Positions 1,883 to 63,347 are shown, counted from the first letter of the stretch. The stretch: DNA of 64,000 bases from Vicinamibacteria bacterium (GCA_963668695.2 CAXXLQ010000004.1:480001-544000); one strand, 5' to 3'. Program-made: numbers and translations. Notes: generated by a model not told the origin, from the sequence alone.

Positions 1883-2030
1883 GTGCCGGTCTGGAGGCCC
1901 CCACCGGGAGGACTGGCCGGCGTTCCCTCCCGGCGGCACCACGGGGATGTTGAGCAGTGCGCAGTCTCGCTGCGCTTCGCGCAGCGGTGCCGGCCCCCGC
2001 CGGGAGAACTGGCCAGAGGTTGGCGTTCCC
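1883..2030. repeat. Two REP-like (family B) hairpin repeats, each carrying a 19-bp micro-insertion
   Basis: GTGCCGGTCTGGAGG[CCCCCACCGGGAGGACTGG]CCGGCGTTCCC and GTGCCGG[CCCCCGCCGGGAGAACTGG]CCAGAGGTTGGCGTTCCC. Confidence 0.75.
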
Positions 2031-2119
2031 CGGCCTGAATCCCGCAAGGGCAGACAGCAACGCGCCGTTCCGCGGCCCTGCGGGCCGCGGGTGCCGACCG
2101 GAGGTCTATACCCTTCGGA

Positions 2120-2335
2120 CTTCGTTTTCTGGGCCCTCCGGTGTGAGAGGCACCGAAGGGCCCTACTTCACCAACCTGTTAGCCGATCCGCCGGGAGCAA
2201 CCAACCGGAGGCATGTGTTTCGAACACCTACGCCGGACTGTGCCTCGACGGATCTTGGCCGTGATGGAACGCACGGTAGAAGGGCAGCGCCATCGAGCAG
2301 CCAGTATAGGCCCCAGCGAACATCACGGCGGCTGA
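2120..2335 (+). ncRNA. IS110 bridge RNA: 5' hairpin, target-binding loop and donor-binding loop
   Basis: Hairpin 2131-2163. Stem GATCCG/CGGATC (2185-2254) encloses ACCGGAGG (= left target) and ACGCCGGAC (= revcomp of right target). Stem GCCGTGATG/CATCACGGC (2258-2329) encloses GGTAGAAGG (= element right end) and GTATAGGC (approx. revcomp of element left end). Exact RNA ends are not known. Confidence 0.85.
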
Positions 2336-2374
2336 CTTCCCTCGGGGGGCTTCCCTCGGAAGGACAACAGCGCC

Positions 2375-3622
2375 ATGACATCTCCTTTTCTGTTTTTCGT
2401 CGGCATCGATTGGGGCTCGACGACCCACCATGGATGCCTGCTGGAGGCGAACGGTTCGGTTCGCGGCAGCCGGGCCTTTCCCCACGGCGGCGCGGGCCAG
2501 GCGGAGCTCGTCCGCTGGCTCCTGGACGAGACCGGGGCCGCCCCCGGGCAGCTCGCGGTCGCCATCGAGACGCCCCACGGGCCGGTCGTCGAGGGCTTGC
2601 TGGTCGCCGGCTTTGCGGTGTTCGCCATCGGTCCCGCCCAGATCCGCGGCTCCCGGCGCCGCTACGTCTCCTCCGGGGCGAAGGACGACCCCCGCGATGC
2701 CTGGATGCTCGCTCGCGCCCTCCGCGCCGACCCCGACCTCTTCCGACGGGTCGAACTCGAGAAGCCTCTCGTCCTCCAACTGCGCGAACGCACCCGGACC
2801 ATCAACGAACTCACCTGCCAGCGCACCCGGCTCTGCCACCAGATCCGCCAGCAGCTCTGGCGCTACTACCCCCAACTGCTCGCGATCCCCGACCTCCTCA
2901 ATCAACTCACCCACCCCTGGTTCCGAGAGCTCTGGAACAAGGCCAAAACCCCCGCACTCGCCCTCAAGCTGCGCGTCTCCACCCTCGCCAAACTCCTCAA
3001 AAAGCACGGCATCCGGCGACTGAACGCCAAAGGCCTGTGGGAGATCCTGCACGCCCCCGCGCTCACCGTCGCCCCCGGAGCCGCCGAGGCCGCCTGCCGC
3101 GCCCTCCAAAGCCTCTTCGCCCAGGCACACACCACCAACCAACTCCTCGCCCAGGCACGAGAAGACGTCCGTGAACTGCTGAAGGCCTTCTCCCAGGCCC
3201 ACCCCGACGACGAACGACCCGACGACATGACCCTCCTCCGCTCCCTCCCCGGTGTCGGGGGCTACGTCCTCAGCACCTTGTTCGCCGAAGCCTTCGACCT
3301 CTTCCAACGCCGCGACTACCCCGCCCTCCGCGCCCGCTCCGGAGTCGCCCCCGTCAGCATCCAGTCCGGCAATACCCGCTGGGAGATCCGCCGCCTCGCC
3401 GTCCAGCACGAACTCCGCAACGCTCTCTACCACTGGGCCCGCGTCGCCGCCGTCCACGATCCCCTCAGCAAAGCCCGCTACCGCGCCCTCCGCGCCCGCG
3501 GCCACTCCCACGGACGCGCCCTCCGCACCGTCGGCGACCGGCTCCTCGCCGTCGCCTGCGCCATGCTCAAAAACGGAACCCTCTACGACCCGAAGCTCTC
3601 CCGAGACAAGCTCGCCGCCTGA
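2375..3622 (+). CDS. IS110-family transposase / bridge recombinase
   Basis: N-terminal FVGIDWG, AIETP, KDDPRDA (DEDD RuvC-like fold); C-terminal SLPGVG and PVSIQSG catalytic-Ser region; GGAAGGA RBS. Confidence 0.95.
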   Translation: MTSPFLFFVGIDWGSTTHHGCLLEANGSVRGSRAFPHGGAGQAELVRWLLDETGAAPGQLAVAIETPHGPVVEGLLVAGFAVFAIGPAQIRGSRRRYVSSGAKDDPRDAWMLARALRADPDLFRRVELEKPLVLQLRERTRTINELTCQRTRLCHQIRQQLWRYYPQLLAIPDLLNQLTHPWFRELWNKAKTPALALKLRVSTLAKLLKKHGIRRLNAKGLWEILHAPALTVAPGAAEAACRALQSLFAQAHTTNQLLAQAREDVRELLKAFSQAHPDDERPDDMTLLRSLPGVGGYVLSTLFAEAFDLFQRRDYPALRARSGVAPVSIQSGNTRWEIRRLAVQHELRNALYHWARVAAVHDPLSKARYRALRARGHSHGRALRTVGDRLLAVACAMLKNGTLYDPKLSRDKLAA

Positions 3623-3861
3623 GCAACTCCTCCAAAGAAAAAAGGATCTTCAAGGTGAGCCGGTGGGAAGTGTGGGAAACGCGCCCCTCTCCGCCGCGGC
3701 CGGCGAACAACCGCCGCCGTGGTGCCGCGTTTTCCAAGTCCTGGGGAAATCGCTTCCCGCCCCGCCGGCCCCCGAAGCCCAAACCCACCTCCCATCCCGA
3801 TTTCCCCGGGACGGCACTTTCCACCGGATACCGAGCACCCGCCCGCAGCCCTCCTTCCCCC

Positions 3862-3867
3862 TTGACA
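3862..3867 (+). promoter_or_regulatory. Outward-facing -35 box at the IS110 right end (half of the circle-junction promoter)
   Basis: TTGACA 15 nt before the junction; after right-end/left-end joining it lies 17 nt from TACCCT (2109-2114). Confidence 0.75.
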
Positions 3868-3941
3868 AAAAGGTAGAAGGTCCGGCGTTCCCTGACCTTC
3901 GCGCCACGGTGCCGGCTGGAGGCGGGCGGTCCCTTGCCCCC

Positions 3942-5669
3942 CTACCGCCGGCGGTGGAGGTAGGCAGGCGTATCGAGGTCGCCCCACCGGTCGTCTCCCA
4001 CATGCCCGGGGAGGGACATGGGCTCATCGATTACCAGCCGTGAGCTGCCGGCGCCCGGAGCACTCGCGGCACTTTCCTGGCCCGCCCCGGGGTCGCTTCC
4101 CATCGCTTCCGCGCGGTCGGTCCCGGAAGCGGCGATGGTGGGACGGGTCCCGAGTTTCGGGATGGTCCGGCCGACTCTCACGGTAGCGGCCGCATCGGCC
4201 TGGGCCACCGGCCCGGACCGGCCGGACGCGGGGGTCGCTCCCCGGGCTCCAAACGTACCGGTCGCGCGGTTCGTGAAGCGGGCGAAGTCGTGAGGGGTCG
4301 CTCCCGCTCGGCTTCGGTCGGGGAAGCCGGTGGCAACCACCGTAACCTTGATCTCGCCCGTCTTGTCCATCGCCGGGTCGAGTGCGGTCCCGATCAGGAC
4401 GTTGTCTCCCGGTTCCGCGTCCGCGGATCCGTAGATTCCCGTCGCTTCGGGAGCCACCGCGTCGCGGACGACCTCAACGGCGCGCTGGACCTCGTTCAGC
4501 GTGAGGCTCTCACCGCCCGTTACGTTGACGATGATGCTCGACGCTCCCTTGATCGAGGTGTCCTCGAGCAACGGCGAAGAAATCGCCGCTTCGGTCGCTT
4601 CCTCGACGCGATTGTCGCCCGAGGCCTGTCCAATGCCCATCACGGCGTCGCCGCGGAGCCGCATGGCGGAACGAACGTCGGCAAAGTCCAGGTTGATCTC
4701 TCCCGGCACCTGGATCAGGTCGGAAATTCCCTGAACGGCCTGGCGCACCACATCGTCGGCACACCGGAACGCGTCCCGGATCTTGAGGTTCCCGTACACC
4801 TCCACGACCCGGTCGTTCGGGACGCAGATGAGGGTATCCACAAACTCGCGGAGTTCCCGGATCCCGTCGTTGGCGGTCGTCTTCCGGCGCCTGCCCTCGA
4901 CGGTCATCGGCTTGGTCGCCACCGCGACGCAGAGGGCCTTGATTTCCTGGACCACGCAGGCGATCACCGGCGCCGCGCCGGTGCCGGTGCCACCTCCCTC
5001 ACCCACGGTGATGAAGACCATGTCGGCGCCCGCCAGCGCGTCGATGAGCAGGTTGATGTCGTCGCGCGCCGCCGACCTGCCGACTTCCGGATCGCCGCCG
5101 CAGCCGAGCCCGCCGGTGCGCTCGCTTCCCAATTGAATCTTCACCGGGGCCTTTGACAGTTCGAGAACCTGAGCGTCGGTGTTCGCGGCAATGAACTCCA
5201 CTCCGGTCACCCCGGCCTCGATCATCCGGTTGACAGCGTTGCCACCGCCGCCGCCGACGCCAATGACCTTGATGACGGCCCGTCTTTCCTGCACGTCGTC
5301 GGGAGCCGCCGAGGGCGGTTCCGCCGTCACGGCGGGCGGGGCGCCGGTCGTGGACTCGACTTCCTCCGCTTCAGCCGGTGGCTTCGTGTTCGTGGCGGCC
5401 GGCTCCTCCACCGCCACGGATCGTTCGGCACGCTCCCAAGGCGCGGCTTCCGGCGTCGCCGCCTCCGGTGTCACCGCCTCCTCCGGGTCCGCAGACTCGT
5501 CCTTGGGGGCAGCGCCCGCGCTGGCAAAGAGCGCCGGCTGGACGGCGGGCGGGGACGCCGCGGCGGCCTCCGGCCGCGAGTCCTCGGGCGGCGAGGACTT
5601 CTCCGTTTTCGGGATCCCGGCTTCGGGATCGCTGGCCTTGGGCGTCGTTTCTTCGGCGAAGAAGATCAT
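3942..5669 (-). CDS. ftsZ: Cell division protein FtsZ with long low-complexity N-terminal extension
   Basis: IKVIGVGGGGGNAVNRM, GGGTGTG tubulin signature, INLDFAD, C-terminal LDTPAYLHR; AAGGAG RBS before ATG 5669. Confidence 0.95.
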   Translation of the reverse strand: MIFFAEETTPKASDPEAGIPKTEKSSPPEDSRPEAAAASPPAVQPALFASAGAAPKDESADPEEAVTPEAATPEAAPWERAERSVAVEEPAATNTKPPAEAEEVESTTGAPPAVTAEPPSAAPDDVQERRAVIKVIGVGGGGGNAVNRMIEAGVTGVEFIAANTDAQVLELSKAPVKIQLGSERTGGLGCGGDPEVGRSAARDDINLLIDALAGADMVFITVGEGGGTGTGAAPVIACVVQEIKALCVAVATKPMTVEGRRRKTTANDGIRELREFVDTLICVPNDRVVEVYGNLKIRDAFRCADDVVRQAVQGISDLIQVPGEINLDFADVRSAMRLRGDAVMGIGQASGDNRVEEATEAAISSPLLEDTSIKGASSIIVNVTGGESLTLNEVQRAVEVVRDAVAPEATGIYGSADAEPGDNVLIGTALDPAMDKTGEIKVTVVATGFPDRSRAGATPHDFARFTNRATGTFGARGATPASGRSGPVAQADAAATVRVGRTIPKLGTRPTIAASGTDRAEAMGSDPGAGQESAASAPGAGSSRLVIDEPMSLPGHVGDDRWGDLDTPAYLHRRR

Positions 5670-5709
5670 GGATTCGCTCCTTGTTCTTGGGGTGGCTGCA
5701 GGGCGCCCC

Positions 5710-5896
5710 GTAGCAGTTCGTGGATAGAGTGACGTGAGCACCGAGATCGGCGAGGCGCCTGGCTGACAAGGCGCGCGAGGGAGGAATACCCGGTGTATTT
5801 CGACCGACGCGCAACGATGAGCGACGCGAAGCGGTGCTGTTCAGCCAGGATGCATCGCCGGTCGAATGCCGCGTGACTCTGTTCACGGGCTGCTTC
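5710..5896. mobile_element. MITE family A copy (187 bp) between ftsA and ftsZ
   Basis: Imperfect TIRs CAGTTCGTGG...TCACGGGCTG; conserved core GGCTGACAAGGCGCGCGAGGGAGGAATACC..GTGTATTTCGACCGA. Confidence 0.85.
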
Positions 5897-21937: not shown

Positions 21938-21974
21938 CCCCACAAGGGCCGGCCCGTTCTCCCGTTGGGGGCCG

Positions 21975-22200
21975 CCACCGCGGCCCGGAGGTCGGAAACG
22001 CCGACCGGTTCTCGCGGTAGCGGCCTTCAGACCGGCACCGGCAGCCCGGAGGTGAGGAACGCCGGGCAGTCCTCCCGGTGGGGCCCTTCAGACCCCCACC
22101 GGGAGAACTGGCCGGCACCGCGGCCGCAGGCCGCGAAACTCCCATCGCCAACCGCGAAAAAGCGCGGGGACGGCTGGAAGCGCCGACCTCTGGTCGGCAC
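21975..22200. repeat. Cluster of REP-like family B units (BIME-like), with two 19-bp micro-insertions and an empty IS110-type target
   Basis: GGCCTTCAGACCGGCACC units; revcomp of 22181-22200 is GTGCCGACCAGAGGTCGGCG. Confidence 0.7.
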
Positions 22201-25018: not shown

Positions 25019-25139
25019 ACCCGCCGCTCATGGCCTCCACCGGGAGAAACGCCCATGATCGGGTCCGCCTGCACGCCGCGCCAGTCATGAAAAAAGCGCG
25101 GCCCTCGCCTTGGCAGGGCGCAACGTCATCGGCGCCGGT

Positions 25140-25288
25140 TTCGCGCTCCCGCGCGATGCCGGCCGGAGGCCAGCGTTCCAAGTCGTCCCCGCGTTCCTTC
25201 TCGTTCGGCAGTACGCGGTTTCGCGGCCCGGTGGGCCGCGATGCCGGCCAGTTCTCCCGGTGGGGGCGTGAACACCGGCGTTCCCCGC
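25140..25288. repeat. REP-like family B doublet with a 19-bp micro-insertion, between convergent genes
   Basis: GATGCCGGCCGGAGGCCAGCGTTCC-linker-CGCGGCCC..GGGCCGCGATGCCGG[CCAGTTCTCCCGGTGGGGG]CGTGAACACCGGCGTTCCC. Confidence 0.7.
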
Positions 25289-27203: not shown

Positions 27204-29551
<2,348 letters not shown>

Positions 29552-29554
29552 GGG

Positions 29555-30050
29555 TTAACAGCCTGTGGTGGAACCCGGGTGAGCGCCGAGCCCGGTGAGG
29601 CCCAGTTCTCCCGGTGGGGCCAGTTCTCCCGGTGGGGGCCCGGCTGACAAGGCGCGTGAGGGAGGAATACCGGGTGTATTTCGACCGAAACGCAACGAAG
29701 AACGCCAGTTCTCCCGGTGGGGGGGCGAAGCGGAGTGGTTCAGCCGGGATGGATCGCCGGGCGAGCCCCCACCGGGAGAACTGGGCCGCCTGGGTTTCAC
29801 CACAGGTTGTTAACAGCCTGAGGACGGAGTGACGTGAGCGCCGAGGCCAGTGAGGTGCCCGGCTGACAAGGCGCGCGCGAGAGGAGCCCCCACCGGGAGA
29901 ACTGGGCCGAGTGTATTTCGAGCGAGGCGCAACGATGAGCGCCGCGAAGCGGCGCGGCCAGTTCTCCCGGTGGGGGCCAGCCGGAGTACATCGCTGGCCG
30001 AGCCCCCACCGGGAGAACTGGGCCGCGTCACTCTGTTCTCCGGCTGTTGG
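29555..30050. mobile_element. Two tandem MITE family A copies (29555-29813, 29810-30050) sharing a TTAA, with seven 19-bp micro-insertions
   Basis: TTAA-CAGCCTG...CAGGTTG-TTAA-CAGCCTG...CGGCTG. Confidence 0.88.
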
Positions 30051-30088
30051 CGGTTTACCGGGCAGCGGCCGGCGCCGGAGCGGAGAGA

Positions 30089-30469
30089 ATGAACGCCGTG
30101 CTCAGCGGCCGGCATCAGGGATTTGCGCTCCTCGCGCTGTCGGCGATCAGCCTGGGCGTCTCCGTTCTGCTCCGGGAGCTGGCCGGAGACGTCACCCTCT
30201 GCGGCGTCAAGGCCCTGTCGGGGCTGCCCTGTCCGTTCTGCGGCGGTGTCCGCGCCACGGCGGCGCTCGGACGCGGCGCACTCGTGGAGGCGTTCGGCTG
30301 GAATCCGGCGCTCACCCTGCTCCACGCCGGGATGGTCATTAGCGGAGCGGCGCTGGTCCTGGGAGTGACGCCGCCGTGGTTCGCTCCCGACCGCCAGCGG
30401 TTCGTGTTCCGCGCCGCGATCGCCATCCTGCTGGTGAACTGGGTCTATCTGGTGGTAGCGGGCCGCTGA
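30089..30469 (+). CDS. DUF2752-family membrane protein
   Basis: LCGVKALSGLPCPFCGGVRA...AFGWNP motif and TM helices. Confidence 0.8.
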   Translation: MNAVLSGRHQGFALLALSAISLGVSVLLRELAGDVTLCGVKALSGLPCPFCGGVRATAALGRGALVEAFGWNPALTLLHAGMVISGAALVLGVTPPWFAPDRQRFVFRAAIAILLVNWVYLVVAGR

Positions 30470-30505
30470 AGGCCTCCGGCGGGTGGATGCCGGGGCGGGC
30501 CGGAC

Positions 30506-31183
30506 TCACCCGGCGGCTTCGACATATACCCGCACCTTCAGACGCGTCGCTCCACGCGAGCCGTTGGACCGGATGGTGAGCCAGCGCTCCAGCACGCCCC
30601 GGTAACGCCGGGTTTCGAGGGTCACCCTGAGTGTCGCCGCCTCCCCCGGAGGGATCACCATGCGGTCGGTCACCGCCGCCGCGCACGCGCATGCCGAGGC
30701 GATGCGGCCGATCTCCAGATCCCGCTGTCCGGTGTTCTTCAGAGCGAACTCGCGAACGAGCACCTCACCGGGGGCCGCCCGCCCGAAGTCCCACTCCCCG
30801 GGCTCGATCTCGAGGCGCGGCCCCCGCTGAAGGGCGTTCCCGGAAGCCGCCGCGAAACCTCCGAAGAGCGCCGCGGCGAGAAGGCAAGCCAGCGCTAGCA
30901 GCCCGTGGTGGAACTCGCGTGAGCGCCGAGAGCGGTGAGGCCCAGTTCTCCCGGTGGGGCCAGTCCTCCCGGTGGGGGCCCGGCTGACAAGGCGCGCGAG
31001 GGAGGAGCCCCCACCGGGAGAACTGGCCCGAGTGTATTTCGACCGAAGCGCAACGCAGAGCGCCGCAAAGCGCCAGTTCTCCCGGTGGGGGGGCGGTTCA
31101 GACGGGATGCATCGCCGCTCGAGCCCCCACCGGGAGAACTGGGCCGCGTGAGTTTCACCACGGGCTGGTCGACTTCGTTTCAA
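30506..31183 (-). CDS. DUF1573-domain secreted protein whose signal peptide is interrupted in frame by a MITE
   Basis: WDFG, F.LKNTG..DLEI, SACAC, IPPGE, IRSN; AGGAGG RBS before TTG 31183. Confidence 0.75.
   Translation of the reverse strand: MKRSRPARGETHAAQFSRWGLERRCIPSEPPPHRENWRFAALCVALRSKYTRASSPGGGSSLARLVSRAPTGRTGPTGRTGPHRSRRSREFHHGLLALACLLAAALFGGFAAASGNALQRGPRLEIEPGEWDFGRAAPGEVLVREFALKNTGQRDLEIGRIASACACAAAVTDRMVIPPGEAATLRVTLETRRYRGVLERWLTIRSNGSRGATRLKVRVYVEAAG
30895..31171. mobile_element. MITE family A copy carrying five 19-bp micro-insertions
   Basis: CTAG-CAGCCCGTGG...CCACGGGCTG and the family core. Confidence 0.88.
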
Positions 31184-31187
31184 CCGA

Positions 31188-31466
31188 TCAGTCCTCCTGG
31201 TCAGAGGTTTCGACCATCCTGAGAAAGGCCGCGAGTCGCTCGTTCTCATAGCGGACGACGTTCAGGAACACGCTTTCTATCAGGTAGCTGCGGCGCTCGC
31301 CGGCATCCATCTCGTCCACGAGGTGGCTGATCTCCCGGGTCATGGCCTCGTAGGTGTTGCGGAACTCGCTCCGCACCGAGACCTCGCGGTAGAGCGCCTC
31401 AAGAATCGCGAGCAGGTCGCCATCGAGCTCGATTTCGCGGCCGCCCCGCATTTGAATGGACCGCAT
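31188..31466 (-). CDS. Hypothetical protein (92 aa)
   Basis: TGATG coupling to the upstream STAS gene; protein-like composition. Confidence 0.65.
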   Translation of the reverse strand: MRSIQMRGGREIELDGDLLAILEALYREVSVRSEFRNTYEAMTREISHLVDEMDAGERRSYLIESVFLNVVRYENERLAAFLRMVETSDQED

Positions 31467-33669: not shown

Positions 33670-34108
33670 TTAACAGCCTGTGGTGGAACCCGGGTGAGCG
33701 CCGAGGTCGGTGAGGGGCCCGGCTGACAAGGCGCGTGAGGGAGGAGCCCCCACCGGGAGAACTGGCCCGGGTGTATTCCGACCGAAACGCAACGATGAGC
33801 GGCGCGAAGCAACGCGGTTGATGGACAGCCGGTCACCGGTGGATGGATCGCCGGCCGAACGCCGCCTGGGTTTTGCCACAGGCTGTTAACAGCCTGTGGT
33901 GGAACCCGGGTGAGCGCCGAGGTCGGTGAGGGGCCCGGCTGACAAGGCGCGTGAGGGAGGAGCCCCCACCGGGAGAACTGGCCCGGGTGTATTCCGACCG
34001 AAACGCAACGATGAGCGGCGCGAAGCAACGCGGTTCAGCCGGGATGGATCGCCGGCCGAGCCCCCACCGGGAGAACTGGGCCGCCCGGGTTTCACCACAG
34101 GCTGTTCA
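33670..34108. mobile_element. Two tandem MITE family A copies (33670-33889, 33886-34108) sharing a TTAA
   Basis: First ~145 bp of the two copies are identical; TTAA junctions; three micro-insertions. Confidence 0.9.
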
Positions 34109-34168
34109 ACGCCCAGCGGGAGAACCGGGCCGAGTACCTTTGTCCACGGGGCTGCCAGGACCGGCTGG

Positions 34169-39880: not shown

Positions 39881-39950
39881 GGAGCGCCGGCCAGTTCTCC
39901 CGGTGGGGGCCTTCAGACCGGCATCGCCCGCGCAGGGGGCGAAACTCCCA
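39881..39950. repeat. REP-like family B copy with a 19-bp micro-insertion
   Basis: GGAGCGCCGG[CCAGTTCTCCCGGTGGGGG]CCTTCAGACCGGCATCG. Confidence 0.8.
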
Positions 39951-43135: not shown

Positions 43136-43354
43136 CTGGCAGTCTGTGGATAACGTGACGTGAGCGCCGAGAGCGCCAGTTCTCCCGGTGAGGGCGAGGC
43201 GCCCGGCTGACAAGGCGCGCGAGGGAGGAGCCCCCACCGGGAGAACTGGCCCGAGCGTACTTCGACCGAAGCGCAACGCCGGGCGACGCCCGGAGCGTTC
43301 AGCCGGGATGCATCGCCGCTCGAACGCCGCGTGACGCTGTCTACAGGCTGCTCG
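43136..43354. mobile_element. MITE family A copy with two micro-insertions
   Basis: CAGTCTGTGG...CTACAGGCTG and the family core. Confidence 0.85.
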
Positions 43355-43398: not shown

Positions 43399-44760
43399 AT
43401 GGGGAAAGCGCTAACCAAGCCGGTCAGCGGCATGCGGGACCACCTGCCTGCTCAAGCCCTGAAGCGCCAGGAAGCATTTCGCCGGGTCGAGAGCGCGTTC
43501 GCAGCGCATGGATTCGTCCCCCTCGAGACACCGGCGATGGAGCGGCTCTCCACCCTGCTCGGGAAGTACGGCGAAGAGGGCGATCAACTCATCTATCGCG
43601 TGCTCCACCGGGGCGAGAGGCTGTCCCGGGCGCTCGGCCGGGAGCGGGTGGAGGCGGCGGATCTCTCCGAACTTGGACTGCGCTACGACCTCACCGTGCC
43701 GCTCGCCCGGGTCACCGCCGAGTACCGCGCCGACCTGCCGGTGGTATTCCGCCGCTATCAGATTCAAGCGGTGTGGCGCGCGGACCGCGCTCAACGCGGG
43801 CGTTTCCGTGAATTCACCCAATGTGACGCCGACATCGTGGGGAGCAGTTCCCTCGTCGCCGACGCGGAGGCGCTTTTGGTGTTGCACGCGGCGCTGTCCG
43901 CCCTCGGTTTTTCGGATTTCACGATCCTGTTGAACCACCGGGAGCTCCTCCGGGCACTGATCGCGGCAAGCGGAATCTCCGCGCACTGTGAACAGAAAAC
44001 GCTGGTCGTACTCGACAAGATCGGCAAGATCGGCCGCGACGCGGTCAAAAACGAACTCGGCGGCCTCCCGGAAGTGGGACCCGACCGGGCGCGGCGACTC
44101 CTGGATTTCGTGCCGGGCGACGCCGAAGACCGGGAGGGCGATCTCGAGAGGCTTCGTCGTCTCGGCCAGGCACTGCCCGCCGGGCCGGGCCAAAACGCCG
44201 CCGCGGATCTCGTCGCGCTGCTCGATGCACTCGACGGAGCCCTGGGAGAAGCCGCTCCGGTCCGGTTCTCACCGAGCCTCGCCCGCGGCCTGAGCTACTA
44301 CACGGGGCCCATTTTCGAGGTGGTCGCAGCGGGAGGCGCGGGTTCGCTCGCGGGGGGAGGCCGCTACGACGGACTCGTGGGGATGTTCAGCGGAAGGGAG
44401 ACCCCGGCGGTGGGGTTTTCTTTGGGAATGGAGCGCATCCTGATGCTGCTCGAGGAAGGCGGGGCCTTTTCCGCGGAAGGCGCGGCGCCGCAGGCCATGC
44501 TCTGCCCACTCCCGGGAATCGCCGTCCGCGACACCCTGCGGATAGCTCGAACCCTGCGTGCCGCCGGATTGCGGCTCGACGTTCAGGTGGATTCGCTGAA
44601 AATCGGAAAGCAGCTCGGGCGCGCGGTGGCTGCCGGCGTCCCCTTCGCGCTGATCCTCGGTCCGGACGAACTCGCGGACGGCCGCTGCACGGTGCGGAAC
44701 CTCGGTTCCGGTGAACAGCGCACGGTCCCCCTCGCGGAAGTTCCGAAGCATCTGGACTAG
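43399..44760 (+). CDS. hisS: Histidine--tRNA ligase
   Basis: GMRD, LRYDLTVPLAR, GRFREFTQCDAD, LARGLSYYTG, GGGRYD, GMERI. Confidence 0.95.
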   Translation: MGKALTKPVSGMRDHLPAQALKRQEAFRRVESAFAAHGFVPLETPAMERLSTLLGKYGEEGDQLIYRVLHRGERLSRALGRERVEAADLSELGLRYDLTVPLARVTAEYRADLPVVFRRYQIQAVWRADRAQRGRFREFTQCDADIVGSSSLVADAEALLVLHAALSALGFSDFTILLNHRELLRALIAASGISAHCEQKTLVVLDKIGKIGRDAVKNELGGLPEVGPDRARRLLDFVPGDAEDREGDLERLRRLGQALPAGPGQNAAADLVALLDALDGALGEAAPVRFSPSLARGLSYYTGPIFEVVAAGGAGSLAGGGRYDGLVGMFSGRETPAVGFSLGMERILMLLEEGGAFSAEGAAPQAMLCPLPGIAVRDTLRIARTLRAAGLRLDVQVDSLKIGKQLGRAVAAGVPFALILGPDELADGRCTVRNLGSGEQRTVPLAEVPKHLD

Positions 44761-44812
44761 GAACGCCGGCCTTCAGGCCGGCATCGCCGCCCGTAGGGGG
44801 GCGAAACTCCCG
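44760..44812. repeat. REP-like family B copy, empty allele, directly after the hisS stop
   Basis: GGAACGCCGGCCTTCAGGCCGGCATCGCC...GGCGAAACTCCC. Confidence 0.75.
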
Positions 44813-50809: not shown

Positions 50810-50940
50810 GGGACCGTTCGCCAGTCCTCCCCGTGGGAGCCTTCAGACCCGCATAGCCCCCGGAGGGCCAGGAACGCCGGCCAGCTCTCCCGGTGGGGGC
50901 CTTCAGACCGGCATCGCTCCCTGGAGGGGAGCGAAACTCA
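50810..50940. repeat. Two REP-like family B units, each with a diverged micro-insertion
   Basis: GGAACGCCGG[CCAGCTCTCCCGGTGGGGG]CCTTCAGACCGGCATCG and a degenerate upstream copy. Confidence 0.7.
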
Positions 50941-57771: not shown

Positions 57772-59622
57772 TCACGGCTGTTCTTGGCGGAAGTACGGAT
57801 GTCCCATGAGGATGGGCGCTTGCTGCGGCCCGCCAATGCGCTCGATCTCGAGCTCCTCGAACAGAACCGACGGCGCGACGACAGCCGCCGGGATGCCCTG
57901 GCCACCGGGGCCGGCAAAGCCAAGGCCGCGAAAAAACCCGCCTCCGCCTGACTCCAGGAACCGATTGTTGACGTACTGATCCTCACCGCTAGCCACGATG
58001 TCCCGCAGGCTCTGCACCGACACATCCCGAAAGCGGAGACCACGCACCAGCTCTTCCCTGCCGTCCTCGACGTAGACCTTGTACGCAATGACCGGGCTCG
58101 TGAGTTGAGACTGGGACATTCCACCCTGCATGAGAACGAAGATGCTCGCCGGGCTCGACAGGTCGCTCCCGGTGATTCCGGGATCGTCGAGCACGCTTAC
58201 CAGAAGACCGTAGTCGAGCCCGGCGTCCCTGGCCATGTTGATCAGCTCCGCCTTCAACGCCTCCGCGCTCAGCCCGCCCTCGGCCCGAACGAGGAGGTTG
58301 CCCGGCTGGGCAGTCGCCGACCCGAACGTTCCAGCGCGACCATGCCCATTGGATTGGGGGATCTCCCGCCGCGGCCGACGAGACATCAGCAGCGTTCGCA
58401 AGATACCGCGTTCGATGAGCGTCACCGGCTGAGAACGCACGCCCTGATCATCGGCGGCGTAACTCCCGATGAGCGTCTCGCCGGCAAAGGACGCCTGCGT
58501 CGGGTCGTCAACCACATCGAAGGATGCCGGCAACACCCGCCGATTCAACCGGTTGGCGAGACCGCTGGACGGCATCATCGCCGCCATGCGTTCGTCCTCG
58601 AGGAGTGGAGGTCGATGGCCGGACAGTTGGGCACCGAGGAGCTGGGCGAAGAATTCGGGGGAGGCCTGCCCGGAGACCAAGACCGGGCCGATGTAGCCAC
58701 CGAGAACGGGAGCCGCAGCCAAGGCCGTCAATTCGCTTGCCATGCTTCGGACGGCAGCTTCCATCTCAGCTTCCGCCGGCAAGTCCTCAACGGCGCGCTC
58801 ATAGAACGGGGCGAAGTGCTTCAGCCGCATCCCGTCTGGCGCCCGGGTGGCCGCCCGCGCATAGAGGACGGCGAGTGATGCTGGCCGGCGGACTACGCTG
58901 CCATCGCTGTTGACGAGGTACTTGTGGCCCCGCTCGACGCGCAACGTCACGCTGGATTCGTCAATCGCCGAGTACTCCCTGAATACCTCGGACAACCTCC
59001 GCAGGGTCCCTTGCCATGCCTCCGCATCGAACGCGGACTCCGCAGGGGGCTCAACCAGCACGGAAGCCCCCTCGACGGAAAAGTCGGGCACGGGTTCGTC
59101 CTGAACCCGGTTCTGGAGGAAGGCACGCTTCTGCGCAAGCTGCTCCAAGGCCTCCTTGTACGCGGCATCGGTCGCCAGCCAGAGATCGTGGCGCAGGGCG
59201 TCATAGTCGTCGTCTCGCACGAGATTCCGCGGAAAGCGCCCGATCCGGATAAAGGACGGCCCTGCGACGAACTCGCTGTTGTCGAGCTCGTGGCTCCCGA
59301 CCCGGACGTCGACGCGCAGCGACCGCATGTGCGTCTGGTCGTTGCGCACACTCGCCCCGAACGTCGCCTCGATAACCGTCAGTTCCGTGTCGACCACCGC
59401 GTACTCGATGAAGTACGGCCGCTCCAGTTCCTCCAGTTGCAGCGTGTCGGTAGACCGTACGAGTTCATCGCGCATCGCGCGCAGCAGAACGTCGGATTGC
59501 TGTGCAGCTCCCGGCTGCTCTCCCGCCGTCTGCCACTCTCCGGCTGCAGGATGGGCACAGAGGGAGAGGAGCAAGACCCATATGCAGAAACGGGCCGACC
59601 GGATGCCTGAGCCAGTCATCAC
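57772..59622 (-). CDS. TldE/PmbA-like protein with signal peptide, lacking HExxGH
   Basis: LRAMRDELVRS, DDQGV, LMSRRP...SNGHGR, GREELVRG, VAPSVLFEELE. Confidence 0.8.
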   Translation of the reverse strand: MMTGSGIRSARFCIWVLLLSLCAHPAAGEWQTAGEQPGAAQQSDVLLRAMRDELVRSTDTLQLEELERPYFIEYAVVDTELTVIEATFGASVRNDQTHMRSLRVDVRVGSHELDNSEFVAGPSFIRIGRFPRNLVRDDDYDALRHDLWLATDAAYKEALEQLAQKRAFLQNRVQDEPVPDFSVEGASVLVEPPAESAFDAEAWQGTLRRLSEVFREYSAIDESSVTLRVERGHKYLVNSDGSVVRRPASLAVLYARAATRAPDGMRLKHFAPFYERAVEDLPAEAEMEAAVRSMASELTALAAAPVLGGYIGPVLVSGQASPEFFAQLLGAQLSGHRPPLLEDERMAAMMPSSGLANRLNRRVLPASFDVVDDPTQASFAGETLIGSYAADDQGVRSQPVTLIERGILRTLLMSRRPRREIPQSNGHGRAGTFGSATAQPGNLLVRAEGGLSAEALKAELINMARDAGLDYGLLVSVLDDPGITGSDLSSPASIFVLMQGGMSQSQLTSPVIAYKVYVEDGREELVRGLRFRDVSVQSLRDIVASGEDQYVNNRFLESGGGGFFRGLGFAGPGGQGIPAAVVAPSVLFEELEIERIGGPQQAPILMGHPYFRQEQP

Positions 59623-61340
59623 CGGCCCTCTCTTTCCGGCCGAGGCAGCAACGGCGGTCTGTCGGCGGCCTTCGGTTGCTTCTGGATCTCGATTTGCGCC
59701 GTGAGGATGGCAGGAGCGACCCCCGAGACCGGGACCATTCCCGATTCGGCGCCACAGAAGCCGTTGAAGACTTGCTGCTCGGTCCCGGTGGCGATGATCC
59801 CGCTGAACGAGATCAGGGGAGTGCCGATCAGGTCAGCGCCGCGAACCAACTCGTCCGGCCGCCCGTCGGCGTACACCCGGTAGACCATGATCGGGGTCAC
59901 CTGGAACACCTGCGGAACCATGCGCCCCGTGAAGGTGAAGCCGCCGGCGATCTCGGTGAACAGCAGGCCGAACTCCTTCCCCTGTCGCTCGATCTCCTCG
60001 ACCAGCAGATCCCGCAGTTCCGAGTCCGACACGGTCTGGGAGGATTCGACAATCAGGTTGCTCTGCCGCCCAACCGGGGCCCGCCCCGGCTGCCTCCTCC
60101 CGTGTCCGTTCGATTGAGCGAAGCCCTCCACGGGTGACCGCGACATGAGGAAGTTCCGCAGCACGCCGTTCTCCACCACCGTTACGGGACGTGACCGCAC
60201 GCCCTCGTCGTCGATCCGGTAGTGACCCGCCAGGTCGGTGCCACCAGCGCGTTCCCGGGTCGGATCGCTGTATACGGAGACGAACTCCGGCAGGATCCGC
60301 TCGCCGATCTTCTTGGTGAACGTCTGGCCCTCCGTTTCGCTCTTCTGCCTATGGCCTTCAATCCGGTGACCGAAGATCTCGTGGAAGAAGACGGCCGCGG
60401 CACGACCCGAGAGGATCGCCGGCCCGGTGTAGGGCTCGATCGCCGGCGCTTCACGGAGTGCGAGCAGATCGGTCACCATACGGTCGATGGCTTGCCGCAC
60501 GGTGTCCTCCCCTGCGAGCCGATCGGGCGAGTGGGCATCGAACGACTCGTACCGATACAGTTCCATGCCGTCGTCCGCACTGGTCGCCGCGTACAGCGCG
60601 ACGCGTACTTGAACCGTGCCGTGCTGAACCTTGGTGCCCTCGCTGTTGACGAGGTACTTGTTGGTTGCGATGGCCGTCAGCGTGGCGTTGGACTCGTGGA
60701 TCTCGGGGTGCGAATCAAGCAGGGCCGAGTACTCCTTCAGGCGCTCTCTCCATGGCTCCACATCGATTGCGATGGAAGCGAGCGGCCCGATGGCCACCTC
60801 CGGTGATTCCCGGGAGAAGTCCGCCGAGCCGTCCTCCTCGTCGACCGTCACCGCCTGGTTGGTCTTGACCTTGACGAGTTGATCCGCAGCAGCCTTGTAC
60901 TTGCGATCGGTGTGCAGCCAGAGAATGCTCTTGATGGCATCGTTGTCATCCTCCAGCGGAATGGCCACGGGCCCGCTGAAGTCGCGCAGCCGCGCGAAGG
61001 GCATCGCGTCGCGAACCTCGTGGGTGTTGTCCAGTTGGTAGTCGCCGACCCGCACATCGACATCGAGAAGCCGCGATCGCCTGGACGTACTCGAGCGCAA
61101 TGCCCCGTATGACGAGACGAGCCTCGTCTGTTCGGTCTCGGTGACCGAGTAGCTCATGAAGTAGGGAGGCGGGTCGGCGTTCCCGCTCAGCTCGTTCATC
61201 GAGCGCTGCAGCTCCTCCTCCATAGGCCGCAGGAGCAGGCTACTCTCCGGCCCCTGCGCGCGGGCACGTTCCGCAGCGATGTAGCAACAGCCAACGGTCA
61301 CGACGACAGCGACCGCGAGAGTCTTCGTGAGTTGATTCAT
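59619..61340 (-). CDS. TldD-like metalloprotease with signal peptide
   Basis: FFHEIFGHRIEG, DDEGV, SNGHGR, RQSNL, CGAESG.VPVS. Confidence 0.85.
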   Translation of the reverse strand: MNQLTKTLAVAVVVTVGCCYIAAERARAQGPESSLLLRPMEEELQRSMNELSGNADPPPYFMSYSVTETEQTRLVSSYGALRSSTSRRSRLLDVDVRVGDYQLDNTHEVRDAMPFARLRDFSGPVAIPLEDDNDAIKSILWLHTDRKYKAAADQLVKVKTNQAVTVDEEDGSADFSRESPEVAIGPLASIAIDVEPWRERLKEYSALLDSHPEIHESNATLTAIATNKYLVNSEGTKVQHGTVQVRVALYAATSADDGMELYRYESFDAHSPDRLAGEDTVRQAIDRMVTDLLALREAPAIEPYTGPAILSGRAAAVFFHEIFGHRIEGHRQKSETEGQTFTKKIGERILPEFVSVYSDPTRERAGGTDLAGHYRIDDEGVRSRPVTVVENGVLRNFLMSRSPVEGFAQSNGHGRRQPGRAPVGRQSNLIVESSQTVSDSELRDLLVEEIERQGKEFGLLFTEIAGGFTFTGRMVPQVFQVTPIMVYRVYADGRPDELVRGADLIGTPLISFSGIIATGTEQQVFNGFCGAESGMVPVSGVAPAILTAQIEIQKQPKAADRPPLLPRPEREGR

Positions 61341-61539
61341 GACCACATCTCCACTCGGGTCAATGCCCTCCAAGCTTGATGCTTGCCCTCCGGCAGCAAC
61401 CTTGTCAAGGGCATGATCCAGAACGCAGACTTGACGGCCCGACGCTAGCACTATAACCCATTGATAATCGGCAATATTAGGGGCACACACCGGCACCTAT
61501 CGGAACGGGGTGGAACGTGGAGATTGCCGACCAGAGGTC

Positions 61540-61667
61540 TATACCTTTCCGGGCATCACATTTTCATGGGGCAGACACCTTGCGAACGAATGGCGCCGGA
61601 CGGGGTGCGTTGGGGCGCGGCAGGTAGCCGGGAGGCGGTGTCAAGAGGAGGAAGGCGGCGAAGGTTC
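61540..61667 (+). mobile_element. Candidate non-autonomous mini-IS110 or internally deleted remnant in a REP target
   Basis: Left junction TGCCGACCAGAGGTC|TATACCTTTC is 23/25 identical to 2092-2116; right junction GAAGGTTC|CGGCGTTCC resembles 3876-3891. Confidence 0.65.
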
Positions 61668-61812
61668 CGGCGTTCCAAGCCGTCCCCGCGCTTCTTCGCG
61701 GTCGGCGATTCGCGCTCTCGCGGCCCTGCGGGCCGCGCGGTGCCGGCCTGAAGACCGGCGTTCCCTCGCCCTCGCGCCACCCTTCTGACCGGGGGTCGGC
61801 GTTCCCTCGCCG
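61668..61812. repeat. REP-like family B cluster (empty alleles)
   Basis: CGCGGCCCTGCGGGCCGCGCGGTGCCGGCCTGAAGACCGGCGTTCCCTCGCCCTCGCGCCAC. Confidence 0.75.
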
Positions 61813-61842
61813 GCCCCCGCGCTCTGTTGGTGAAACCCTGGC

Positions 61843-62613
61843 TCAGGCGACTCCGGGCTCCACGCGGACGCCCATCAGGCGGCCGGTGTGGCCCACCGCC
61901 GCTCCGGCGGCCGTGATCCCCCAGAAGTAGCCCGGGATGGCGCCGACCAGGCACAGGATGAGGGTCAAGTCCGAAACGATCGCGAACAGGATCAGAGTCA
62001 GCAGCATCACGACGTAGGTGCCGAAACTGGCGCGAATCCAAGCGATGTTCTCGTCCAACCGGAAGGCGGCGCTGAAACGGCCCGTCGCCGCCAGTTGCAT
62101 GATGCCCGCCGGGATCAGCGCCTTGGCGACCAGTGCCGCGAACACGAGGAAGATCACGGAGGCGATGCTGCCCAGGACCGAAGTCACGACCACCGCGGGA
62201 GAACCCATGGACTGCCCGATCACCGCCCAGAGAATCCCGATCCCCACGAGAACCGCGCCCATGGCAACAGCCGCGAGCGAATATCCCAGGACAACCCCCA
62301 GCGCCCTGAGGCCGTCGACCAGCAGGCCGCCGAAATCATCCCAATCGGGCATCGGGTGCTCGTCACCCCGCAGCGTTCCCCGCGCCGTCCGCACCCCGAA
62401 GCCGAGCAGCGCCAGCAGGCCGAGACCCAGCAGGGGGATGAGCAGGACCATGAGGCTGCCGATCATGAACTTCGACAGCGCCTTCGGATCCCGGAAGGCA
62501 AAACCGAACAGGTGGCCGATGTCGAATCGCTCGGGCGCGGGGGGAGTCGGCGGTAGAGGTGGCGGCGGCGCCTGCTGCTCGCCGGTAGTCGGAACTGGTT
62601 GGTCTTCGGTCAT
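61843..62613 (-). CDS. DUF4013-family membrane protein
   Basis: FAFRDP...KF.IG, MPDWDDFGGLLVDGLR, multiple TM helices. Confidence 0.8.
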   Translation of the reverse strand: MTEDQPVPTTGEQQAPPPPLPPTPPAPERFDIGHLFGFAFRDPKALSKFMIGSLMVLLIPLLGLGLLALLGFGVRTARGTLRGDEHPMPDWDDFGGLLVDGLRALGVVLGYSLAAVAMGAVLVGIGILWAVIGQSMGSPAVVVTSVLGSIASVIFLVFAALVAKALIPAGIMQLAATGRFSAAFRLDENIAWIRASFGTYVVMLLTLILFAIVSDLTLILCLVGAIPGYFWGITAAGAAVGHTGRLMGVRVEPGVA

Positions 62614-62751
62614 CGTTTTCCTTCCGGGGACGCCGGGTTCGTTTCCGTTCCCCGAAACAAGCTAACGAAGACAGATCGCGAAAGTTCTTGCCGGCGTGAG
62701 CGTTGGGTCGGCGCAGCCAGACTGCCCGTGGCGAACGACACCAGCGTCGGC

Positions 62752-62938
62752 CGGCGGCGCGGAGCGCCGCAGGGGTGGGGTGCGGGGAGGGGTTCCCCTC
62801 CCCGCGGAAAAGGATGGCGGGAATCGCACAGCGATTCCCGTCATCACCCCGTGGGGAAAGCACCCCGCATTCAGAGAGTCTCGCAGAGCCAACTCTCCTC
62901 GTGGCGGAGGGAGGATGCGGGGTGCATTCTCTACGGGC
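62752..62938. repeat. Structured repeat family C, copy 2 (inverted relative to copy 1)
   Basis: Revcomp aligns with 39678-39858. Confidence 0.7.
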
Positions 62939-62940
62939 TG

Positions 62941-63347
62941 CTAGCAGCCTGTGGTGAAACCCGGGTGAGCGCCGAGGTTGGCCAGTTCTCCCGGTGGGGG
63001 CGAGGCGCCCGGCTGACAAGGCGCGTGAGGGAGGAATACCTGGTGTATTTCGACCGAAACGCAACGATGAGCGGCGCGAAGCGACGCGGTCAACAGCCGG
63101 TGGTGGAACCCGGGTGAGCGCCGAGGTCGGCCAGTTCTCCCGGTGGGGGCGAGGCGCCCGGCTGACAAGGCGCGTGAGGGAGGAATACCGGGTGTATTTC
63201 GACCGAAGCGCAACGATGAGCGGCGCGCAGCGACGCGGTCAGCCGGGATGAATCGCCGGCCGAACGCCGCGTGGGTTTCATCACCGGCTGTTTGGCCGGG
63301 ATGGATCGCCGGCCGAACGCCGCGTGGGTTTTGCCACGGGCTGCTAG
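62941..63347. mobile_element. Nested MITE family A: inner copy 63090-63294 inside an outer CTAG-bounded copy
   Basis: Outer copy breaks at GCGACGCGGT and resumes at GCCGGGATGGATCGCC after a full inner copy. Confidence 0.85.

Follow-up and report, generated by a model that had tools for sequence, protein, structure and literature searches.

A 64,000-nt stretch of a Vicinamibacteria bacterium genome, referred to as the window, carries one short non-palindromic word again and again, which raises the question of how a sequence of fewer than 20 nt could come to occupy so many places. All copies listed in an earlier sequence-only reading exist: we detected 26 at ≤2 mismatches in the window, against 0.01 expected, and four degenerate ones (22065, 25034, 34109, and 50820). 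The copies and their carriers are:

1898..2012, + strand: two units (1898-1916 and 1994-2012), one mismatch each, in REP-type carriers
21953..22111: REP B-type cluster with a unit at 21953-21971 (-, two mismatches), a degenerate copy at 22065-22084 (-), and an exact unit at 22093-22111 (+)
25034..25245, + strand: Element C copy, its 5' end sharing the first ~15 nt of the unit (CCTCCACCGGGAGAA) before it diverges (ACGCCCATGATCGGG)
25248..25266, - strand: exact unit in a GCCGG...CCGGCGTTCC REP hairpin immediately 3' of Element C
29557..29811, + strand: MITE A copy 1, with a doublet at site s2 (29602-29638; -,-), s4 29705-29723 (-), s5 29766-29784 (+), and s3 empty (GGAATACCG)
29812..30048, + strand: MITE A-like copy 2, diverged, with units 29887-29905 (+), 29958-29976 (-), and 30003-30021 (+)
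30897..31167, + strand: MITE A copy 3, fully loaded, with a doublet at 30942-30978 (-,-), s3 31008-31026 (+), s4' 31073-31091 (-), and s5 31124-31142 (+)
33747..34128, + strand: exact units 33747, 33963, and 34061 in MITE A copies; degenerate copy 34109-34128
39891..39909, - strand: filled REP B hairpin, GCGCCGG-unit-CCTTCAGACCGGC, a clean 19-bp insertion
43176..43249: units 43176-43194 (-, one mismatch) and 43231-43249 (+)
44750..44790, + strand: empty REP B hairpin, GGAACGCCGG joined directly to CCTTCAGGCCGGC, the empty counterpart of 39885
50820..50899, - strand: degenerate copy 50820-50839 and unit 50881-50899 (one mismatch), in REP B-type context
62982..63149, - strand: two exact units (62982-63000 and 63131-63149) at site s1 of MITE A copies

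The degenerate copy previously placed near 25037 is the 5' end of Element C.

The proposed genome-wide word count yielded 1,613 copies at ≤2 mismatches (1,123 exact), evenly split between strands, in the 4.1-Mb genome, a figure that is ~10% too high because three of the four contigs (C1-C3) largely duplicate parts of the fourth, C4. This genome is labelled G000 among those compared. The reversed word, used as a control at the same threshold, had no match genome-wide.

The boundaries of the unit were assessed from doublets, flanks, and pairs of filled and empty sites. The insert had been described as 19 bp long; a discrete, bounded unit is indeed present, but the net gain was 18 bp at eight of the ten sites where filled and empty forms were compared and 19 at only two. 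The repeating unit is thus 18 bp (CCCCACCGGGAGAACTGG), the tandem doublets reported at 29602/29620 and 30942/30960 have a period of 18, and MITE lengths climb in unit steps (167, 185, 203, 221, 239, and 257). This core travels with one to three flanking bases, ~22 nt in total. A G generally stands at position -1 (1,411/1,612) and a C at +20 (1,484/1,612), and information content drops steeply outside this range. Partial units made up 1-5% of occurrences (16-69 outside full units, out of 1,351-1,603 per 11-mer). The unit was rightly called non-palindromic and too short for a MITE: complementary ends reach at most 3-4 nt, and only if flanks are counted. A classification as a MITE was ruled out on its length of 18-19 bp and the lack of TIR-type palindromy and of a target-site duplication; 0-4 nt are replaced instead. 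Only some filled alleles are clean insertions, such as the pair GCGCCGG-unit-CCTTCAG (from 39870) and ACGCCGG-CCTTCAG (from 44750), which was exact as reported. At s3, ATA was exchanged for 21 nt, at s4 two bases for 20 nt, and at s5 AC for 20 nt. Insertion between GG and CC, said to regenerate GGCC at both junctions, fits 255 of the 1,613 copies but is not a strict target, as 562 had GGCC on the right only, 46 on the left only, and 750 on neither side.

The unit is modular. Its carriers, a ~185-bp hairpin MITE and several REP-like hairpins, are GC-rich, palindromic, and mobile; the main one is the MITE, which has TIR CAGCCTGTGGTGGAACC and whose sites are empty in relatives. About 91% of copies occupied about six fixed sites of this very active element. 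Repeats lay on both flanks of 1,376 of the 1,613 copies and mostly unique sequence flanked only 42; strictly solo copies numbered five, all within REP or MITE fragments. At least six positions were seen in MITE A and two to three in REP B-type hairpins, in agreement with the minimum of five and two counted before. MITE fragments fused to Element C at the unit, and a mini-MITE (L028) formed by deletion between two units, show that it acts as portable homology.

Haplotypes were counted on chromosome C4. Each MITE site had only two to three discrete haplotypes, in near-absolute linkage with flanking SNPs. Filled s5 read CGA-GC[18]G in 272 copies versus four with A, and empty s5 read CGAACG in 232, plus seven CGAATG, with G in about one. 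Filled s3 read GGAGC[18]CC in 222 copies, the corresponding contrast being 222 versus 1, and empty s3 read GGAATAC in 162. At s2, single units went with A (62 versus 5) and doublets with G (n = 121); the doublets were one haplotype, marked by a SNP linked to it and by variant and consensus unit in a fixed order. Most copies therefore descend from few founder events, and the ~29 copies in the window and ~1,600 in the genome cannot be read as separate insertions. The earlier claim of independent spread stands as far as many positions, unrelated carriers, and filled and empty alleles are concerned. Descent from a few ancestral events spread by conversion, which had been named as the outcome that would speak against it, applies to most copies; at least 15 independent founder sites across carriers and genera remain. 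In every one of the three backbone subfamilies, 26-55% of copies were filled at each of s1, s2, s3, and s5, and site states formed 18-23 combinations per subfamily.

Among relatives, the unit was found in all 15 genomes searched of the genus, five of nine others of the family, and none of 16 genomes of two sister families; viral contigs contained no unit. Copy number ranged from zero or one up to 1,526, with none in four family genomes and a density of ~1 per 2.6 kb in four species. The identical word occurred in five genera with MITE backbones ~25-30% different from one another, and it was mostly exact even where a genome had only 7-18 copies.

Filled/empty polymorphism, which the sequence-only reading had proposed to look for, was found among related genomes, with orthologous copies switching both ways. 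MITE A copy 1 has four units in G000 and none in G004, with one SNP otherwise; copy 2 has all three units in G004 as well. At the copy 3 locus the MITE is missing in G004 and G008, and in G001 it is present but has none of the five units. For 41 of 71 G000 units compared with G004, the carrier or a large segment was missing there, and several sites were clean and empty. Across 40 comparisons of a locus between species, canonical allele signatures accompanied every precise difference of 18 or 36 nt, and the differences ran in both directions. A single locus allowed polarity to be assigned. At C4:523176 (43176 in the window), s5 of a MITE is filled in G004 and G008 and carries the canonical empty GAAC allele in G000; plain deletion is disfavoured there because it would not recreate that allele. 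In G020, a genome with no other unit, one of 43 MITEs was filled at s3 with the same ATA to GC[18]C signature as in G000; the filled s3 signature is common to two genera.

The statement that no copy lies in coding sequence failed genome-wide, as one copy sits in an AcrB-family gene of G000. In total, three genes (acrB-like, mfd, and coaBC) carried in-frame copies with orthologous empty sites. In the acrB-like gene, 7 nt became 25 nt, unchanged in both G000 and G001. In mfd of G012, AGAC became 22 nt relative to the 93%-identical relative G007, and the patch flanks (GGCC...TGC) equal those of a MITE-borne copy in the same genome. This GGCC[18]TGC patch shows microhomologies of 1-2 nt; tract length across sites is near constant, unlike SPDIR as described. 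Added flanks were lineage-specific (GCC...TG in G010 and G012, G...SC in G000).

The explanation we put first, with about an even chance of being right, is that the 19-mer is a lineage-specific small dispersed repeat and optional module that arose from few founders, then proliferated and was converted, new sites being founded by patch transfer. Its host lineage is marine or sponge-associated Vicinamibacteria, and it appears to spread by copying between larger mobile repeats, not by jumping alone. A limited number of founder events would have left one filled haplotype per site, and proliferation of the very active MITE would have amplified these. Short-tract gene conversion or recombination, which we infer, would then shuffle haplotypes among hundreds of near-identical MITE copies, explaining why site states assort freely and orthologous copies go on and off rapidly. 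An existing copy may also found new sites, the three in genes included, by templated patch transfer. The unit with its donor's immediate flanks would take the place of a few target bases, through joints of 1-5-nt GC-rich microhomology, in a step comparable to short-patch illegitimate recombination or template switching. The MITE switches yielded no pair of donor and recipient, and four separate switches in one MITE with no other change require a near-identical donor or very short tracts. The sharp ends of the unit are a point against this copying model, and the identity of the word across genera, with its exactness in low-copy genomes, suggests sequence-specific recognition or selection outside it.

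Such recognition is offered by a dedicated micro-insertion system, in which a putative recombinase, nuclease-ligase, or integrase-like enzyme would move a ~22-nt oligonucleotide; we consider it unlikely, at somewhat above one chance in five. In this system the oligonucleotide would replace 0-4 nt where GC-rich hairpins, once extruded, are left unpaired, a step that is doubtful to the same degree. Sharp ends with rare partial units, the constant gain of 18 bp, the identical word in five genera and in low-copy genomes, and more than 15 distinct sites over carriers and genera are consistent with such a system. So is the location of s1, s2, s4, and s5, which the predicted MITE fold puts into loops or bulges, and that of REP-borne units in or beside the hairpin loop. 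Against it, no candidate gene emerged from the RVT_1 and Y1_Tnp profile searches, which gave no match in the genome, no unit was found in viral contigs, and a single filled haplotype per MITE A site implies that the process, if real, fires rarely. Moreover, replaced and added bases vary by site and track lineage donor flanks, as copying from a neighbour predicts. In a concrete form, units in opposite orientation would pair perfectly in the folded MITE, in contrast to the imperfect pairing of its backbone; a nuclease that trims the extruded hairpin could then free exactly the unit as an oligonucleotide to be re-integrated at replication forks. That an enzyme or structure-specific process writes a ~22-nt piece into unpaired hairpin DNA, and occasionally in frame into genes, is accordingly no better than a minority possibility.

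Less probable still, at roughly one chance in seven, is a selected functional site, such as one bound by a regulatory or nucleoid protein or an uptake-type signal, which purifying selection would keep identical and which would serve as a module of mosaic repeats, comparable to the IHF site in Escherichia coli BIMEs/RIPs. The word stays exact between genera as its carriers diverge, uses the two strands equally, reaches its high density in four species, and is unchanged in the acrB-like gene of G000 and G001, all of which suits this reading. A core function would, however, not tolerate a range from zero or one to 1,526 copies among relatives with four family genomes lacking the unit; orthologous sites flip on and off freely, copies lie nearly all in repeats where an uptake signal would be genome-wide, and a 19-nt insertion cannot arise by selection.

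A reverse transcriptase or telomerase-like activity writing the unit from an RNA template at breaks, one of the sources suggested earlier, is very improbable. Doublets with an exact 18-nt period look like template reiteration, but they form a single SNP-linked haplotype, not repeated events, and a six-frame search of the four contigs gave no match to PF00078 (RVT_1), a profile that scored in three of 14 control genomes. As no Rfam family was detected within the window either, assignment to retron, telomerase-like, or group II insertion was rejected, leaving a small probability for a divergent reverse transcriptase. For an assembly, adapter, or primer artefact nothing was found, and its chance is negligible, as the unit occurs in many independent MAG assemblies from different assemblers and projects, in sponge-metagenome contigs from runs of four studies, and within orthologous loci and in frame in genes across species.

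Next, we compared the unit with known systems; its sequence was not found in literature text. Contrary to the statement that no such element has been described, Nostocaceae have small dispersed repeats (SDR4-6), 21-27 nt long, which Elhai et al. (Genome Res 18:1484), cited in PMC5861425, PMC3116915, and PMC2884548, are said to have described in 2008. These reportedly nest in other repeats, occur in filled and empty versions, and are sometimes tandem; we know of no enzyme behind them and of no mechanism put forward since 2008. Judged by description, they are the closest precedent. The unit is likewise a highly iterated dispersed word of ~20 nt (an 18-19-nt core, ~22 nt with flanks) inside other repeats with empty counterparts (at least six MITE A sites, REP hairpins, and three genes). 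Its core is slightly shorter than the SDR range, its Acidobacteriota host has no lineage relationship to Nostocaceae, the words are probably unrelated in sequence, and haplotype linkage, patch-type junctions, and in-frame genic copies are seen for the unit. According to PMC5861425, SDR5 inserts at HIP1, a short palindromic GC-rich site, and no SDR-like repeat is reported outside Nostocaceae among HIP1-rich cyanobacteria.

Escherichia coli BIMEs combine palindromic units with extra motifs, an IHF site being contained in BIMEs/RIPs, and pneumococcal BOX elements vary in the number of boxB modules. Palindromic units (PUs) are mentioned in PMC2884548. Like these modules, the unit is short, optional, and variable in number and orientation within intergenic palindromic repeats; it differs in being non-palindromic, in having at least six alternative positions in one element, in entering unrelated carriers and genes, and in being far better conserved than its carriers. 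REPINs are short, hyper-abundant, lineage-specific extragenic repeats, often inverted pairs forming hairpins (PMC3116915). The unit shares shortness, abundance, and lineage specificity; it was excluded as a REP/REPIN with a RAYT because it is not palindromic and the Y1 transposase profile PF01797 (RAYT/IS200-type), which scored in six of 14 control genomes, had no match in the genome. SPDIR is a documented process in which single strands of ectopic origin are integrated at microhomologies. The junctions at mfd, s3, s4, and s5 may resemble it, a short ectopic stretch joined at microhomologies standing there in place of a few bases, and differ in that the unit is one fixed, recurring word with sharp ends. 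Point mutation gives rise to the uptake signals of Neisseria (DUS) and Pasteurellaceae (USS), which lie scattered through genes. They share with the unit its family specificity, its spacing of about one per few kb on both strands, and its frequent inverted pairs, whereas the unit is nearly confined to repeats, is an indel, and varies from 0 to 1,500 copies among relatives; given repeats on both sides of 1,376 of 1,613 copies, it was not classed as a DNA uptake sequence.

Repeats shorter than a MITE that appear at new places are, to our knowledge, almost undocumented, the SDRs of Nostocaceae being the only described case we know of. The unit adds another, apparently unrelated case that is much more abundant and far better suited to comparison, as it comes with four genomes close to one another, mostly complete or near-complete, with hundreds of copies each, low- and zero-copy relatives, orthologous on/off switches, and three in-frame insertions in housekeeping or transport genes. 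With this material, comparative genomics and long reads from populations can directly test how a 20-nt word spreads. The unit is also a clean natural case of hundreds of MITE copies evolving in concert and shuffling their alleles, and of a repeat module able to add six codons to proteins. For annotation, the unit accounts for ~0.7% of the genome and for many breaks in short-read MAG assemblies from the lineage. A dedicated writing process, if true, would define a class of mobile DNA below MITE length, the smallest known, possibly with a mechanism shared with the SDRs.

The copies reported by the sequence-only reading are real: the 19-mer CCCCCACCGGGAGAACTGG had 26 matches in the window at ≤2 mismatches, where shuffling predicts 0.01, and relaxed matching added degenerate copies near positions 22065, 25034, 34109 and 50820. 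In the whole genome (G000; 4.1 Mb, 67.5% G+C, four contigs) we counted 1,613 copies at ≤2 mismatches (1,123 exact, 403 with one mismatch and 87 with two), a figure that, like all repeat counts here, is about 10% too high because contigs C1–C3 largely repeat stretches of C4. Copies were split evenly between the strands, two recurrent variants made up 310 of the 403 one-mismatch copies, and the reversed word gave no match in the genome at ≤2 mismatches. Near-identical large duplicates also occur within and between contigs (e.g., C4:304184-421223; C4:9354-130583 versus C4:3780406-3913787); these are consistent with either assembly redundancy or real large duplications and agree with the 9.3% "contamination" figure.

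Drawn as a logo, the copies showed a sharply bounded core, with G at position -1 in 1,411 of 1,612, C (969) or G (637) at +19, C at +20 in 1,484, and a signal that collapses outside. What repeats is in fact an 18-bp unit: tandem doublets have a period of 18, and copies of the main carrier, MITE A, fall into length classes between their end motifs that rise in 18-nt steps (167, 185, 203, 221/222, 239 and 257 nt). Partial units were rare: depending on the 11-mer taken from the unit, 16–69 of 1,351–1,603 occurrences fell outside a full unit, mostly in one-base-deleted units or in a longer repeat described below, Element C. Read by eye, the 19-mer lacks a stop codon in all six frames, and the net 18 nt equal six codons.

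The unit is no artefact. An adapter or assembly origin was dismissed, as the unit is carried by many independently assembled MAGs recorded as Vicinamibacteria or "Candidatus Marinacidobacterium", and four studies of sponge metagenomes yielded runs whose contigs carry the window stretch. The unique parts of window 29300-31300 were 99–100% identical to sponge-metagenome contigs from several studies (runs X1, X5, X15 and X18). Short-read contigs of all four runs break at every MITE, so short-read MAGs of this lineage will be fragmented there; 36-nt "skips" in them stem from other MITE copies.

Nearly all copies sit in repeats. Their flanks comprised only 764 distinct 14-mers; 1,376 of the 1,613 copies had repeated sequence on both sides, 42 had mostly unique flanks, and the five strictly solo units still lay, by eye, within REP or MITE fragments. 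In-register clustering placed 1,465 copies (91%) in the MITE A family and the remainder in small REP-hairpin families. In REP B, the unit occupies the stem–loop junction. MITE A is about 185 bp long when empty, has terminal inverted repeats CAGCCTGTGGTGGAACC, is predicted to fold into a single long imperfect hairpin, and is present in 400–600 copies by BLAST depth. Sister species differ in where it is inserted, and the vacant sites are clean. Units occupy at least six positions in it, always in the same orientation at a given position (s1, s2 as single or doublet, s3, s4/s4', s5 and s6); among 204 aligned complete copies, occupancy was about 10% at s4 and 20–49% at the other sites.

Copies of MITE A also lie inside or abut one another (C4:588137-588435; window 29557-30048), and in comparison with the relative G004 a 129-nt MITE piece sits within another MITE. 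The MITE A region had no match among PLSDB plasmids, and no autonomous partner was found in the genome. Long repeats were traced to assembly duplication or tandem arrays and were not IS elements, and none of four DDE_3 (IS630-type) hits was flanked by MITE ends, one of them (L223) merely having an ordinary MITE upstream. Long tandem arrays lie outside the window at C4:574312-576071, 2554259-2555871 and 2329554-2330693. One array repeats GAACATGTCGC(T/A)(C/G)TAGCG with variable stretches of ~17–20 nt between repeats (period ~36–40), a CRISPR-like layout with spacers that are too short; another has a ~31-nt period (…GATGCGGAGTCTCCCCGGCGTGGTCCCCGC…).

Filled and empty sites were compared to define the junctions. 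The pair 39885 (filled) and 44764 (empty) does differ cleanly by 19 bp, as first read, and a 19-bp insertion holds for s1 and REP B; elsewhere the net gain is 18, often with a few bases replaced.

Filled versus empty alleles of unit sites (18 in brackets, the unit)
s1: +19, clean
REP B: +19, clean (window pair 39885 filled, 44764 empty)
s2: +18, clean
s3: GGA-ATA-CCG becomes GGA-GC[18]C-CCG
s4: 2 nt become 20 nt
s5: CGA-AC-GCCG becomes CGA-GC[18]-GCCG

Across ten compared sites the net gain was 18 in eight and 19 in two, and junctions were often replacements, not insertions. The proposed GG|CC target, with GGCC on both sides, fits only 255 of the 1,613 copies. The observation stays real and striking once it is corrected for an 18-bp net gain, loosely defined flanks, junctions that replace bases, and the genic copies described below.

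Flanking differences on C4 were linked almost absolutely to the filled or empty state. At s5, filled sites had GC (n = 272) or AC (n = 4), while empty sites read CGAACG (n = 232, plus seven CGAATG), with about one empty site having G. At s3, filled sites read GC..CC (n = 222) and empty ones ATAC (n = 162). At s2, the base before a single unit was A (62 vs. 5) and that before a doublet was G (121), the doublets having a preferred variant-plus-consensus order. Each site thus has two or three discrete alleles, with no spectrum of independent events. These alleles assort almost freely: s1, s2, s3 and s5 were 26–55% filled in each of three backbone subfamilies, which held 18–23 state combinations apiece, and only s4 was subfamily-bound.

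Alleles also switch at orthologous loci. In 40 locus-by-species comparisons around the window, each G000 unit was scored for its state in the nearest relatives, with gaps of ≥60 nt denoting an absent or rearranged carrier.

State of G000 units in relatives (identity to G000)
G004 (92–94%): present 22; 18-nt gaps 4; 36-nt gap 2; imprecise gaps 2; gaps ≥60 nt 41
G001 (92–96%): present 7; 18-nt gaps 3; 36-nt gap 2; imprecise gaps 0; gaps ≥60 nt 22
G008 (88–90%): present 7; 18-nt gaps 0; 36-nt gap 0; imprecise gaps 1; gaps ≥60 nt 7

In the reverse direction, one G004 unit and one G008 unit were missing from G000. All precise differences showed the canonical filled or empty allele, including its flanking SNPs. 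In the MITE at window 29557-29811, all four units of G000 are missing from G004, and one further SNP separates the two copies. At C4:523176 (window ~43.2 kb) it is G000 that is empty, with the canonical GAAC allele, and both G004 and G008 are filled; since a simple 18-nt deletion would give GAGC, conversion from an empty copy is the economical reading. Haplotype linkage and orthologous switching together indicate that the copies descend from few events. The count of about 29 insertions found no support, most copies being inherited haplotypes, and independent insertion gave way to a few events whose products spread through proliferating carriers and through conversion, an outcome that the sequence-only reading had itself named as contrary to it.

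What survives of the original claim is that a word smaller than a MITE colonises new sites: founder sites number at least 15 across carriers and genera and are not limited to one carrier. Every searched genome of the genus carried the unit (15/15), as did 5/9 of the family's other genomes (genera g2, g4, g5 and g6), at 1 to 1,526 copies per carrying genome; two sister families had none (0/16 genomes). New MITE sites were found in G010/G012, bin61-type MAGs and G019, and several REP hairpins bear the unit in the loop. In G018, of another genus, the unit and a REP hairpin (GCCGGACTCCAGTC...) form 44-bp tandem arrays of 3–4 repeats (L226, C1:61800-62700). G020, of a different genus, has 43 MITEs and a single unit: one MITE is filled at s3, its backbone is of the native G020 type, and its junction repeats the ATA→GC[18]C signature; the donor was thus extragenomic or the allele is ancient. 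No viral contig had an exact unit. A 6-kb "Gammaproteobacteria" MAG contig with the unit in typical REP context is probably mis-binned. An exact 19-nt match in an Acidimicrobiaceae MAG contig (L154) lies inside an unrelated actinobacterial ORF (...YAQFSRWGIALV...) and was rejected, being taken as chance in a 596-Gb collection; lone exact matches beyond the lineage accordingly carry little meaning.

Ordinary coding sequence, where the sequence-only reading saw no copy, contained three, all in frame (readings PPPGEL, PHRENW and TSSPGG). One, shared by G000 and G001, lies in a gene for an AcrB-family transporter (Pfam ACR_tran, E 6e-241), where 7 nt in seven other aligned genomes of the genus became 25. 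The second is in mfd of G012 (CarD_TRCF_RID and UvrB_inter domains), where 22 nt stand in place of the AGAC of G007 (93% identical); at this position G010 has a degenerate 12-nt version, and it carries the third unit in coaBC. Around the mfd patch at least 3 of 4 flanking bases differ, against ~0.3 expected at that divergence, and its flanks (GGCC...TGC) are those of a MITE-borne copy in G012 itself (L026).

Element C, a ~150–210-bp repeat and a candidate small RNA or MITE, lies at window 25034-25245 and recurs at ~27 further places in G000. It opens with the unit's first 15 nt (CCCCCACCGGGAGAA), continues with ACCCTCATGATCGGG...CCCGTCATGAAAAAGG (a hairpin) and ends in ...TTTCGCGCTCCCGCGCGATGCCGG; it had no Rfam match. 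Its restriction to the genus (15/15 genomes, against 0/25 beyond it) ruled it out as master copy of the unit, because four other genera have units. Element C is fused to differing MITE fragments exactly at the unit, which thus serves as portable homology, as it also does in L028, a mini-MITE that lost the stretch between two units.

The best-supported account has two layers. In the first, MITE proliferation and short-tract conversion among hundreds of near-identical copies would amplify and shuffle the unit; the shuffled pattern is directly visible, and we infer conversion as the process. In the second, rare founder events would copy the unit and its immediate flanks from an existing copy to a new place, with GC-rich microhomologies at the junctions and a few target bases replaced. 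Such a pattern is characteristic of template switching or short-patch illegitimate recombination; SPDIR is described as integrating ectopic single strands at microhomologies.

Against the two-layer account as the whole story stands the identity of the unit between genera with MITE backbones 25–30% diverged, even where a genome has only 7–18 copies. That identity keeps two further explanations alive. A dedicated sequence-specific process is unlikely. Candidate machinery suggested by the sequence-only reading did not turn up: G000 had no match to RVT_1 or to Y1_Tnp, though control genomes scored for both, and no Rfam family reached the gathering threshold in the window. Selection on a putative binding site, which would keep the unit unchanged on diverged backbones, seems distinctly improbable. 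When a fully loaded MITE is folded in prediction, units of opposite orientation pair perfectly and the backbone imperfectly, so trimming of extruded hairpins could free unit-length oligonucleotides with defined ends, a speculative bridge. Quasipalindrome copying between MITE arms was ruled out as a general rule: the sites are not mirror positions, s3–s4, which would pair, showed no association (OR 1.07), and the s2–s5 association (OR 3.65) was matched by the non-pairing s3–s5 (OR 4.6).

The unit fails the defining tests of a MITE, REPIN/RAYT, RT-templated insertion and an uptake sequence. The closest described phenomenon is the small dispersed repeats (SDR) of Nostocaceae, ~20-bp repeats "which might be mobile" (PMC2884548); in another account, HIP1 is a possible insertion site of SDR5, and HIP1-rich cyanobacteria other than Nostocaceae showed no SDR-like repeat (PMC5861425). 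The searched literature did not print the unit word and contained nothing on "Marinacidobacterium" and nothing relevant on Acidobacteria, sponge and MITE together. In its behaviour, the unit acts like a module of mosaic REP elements such as BIME and BOX.
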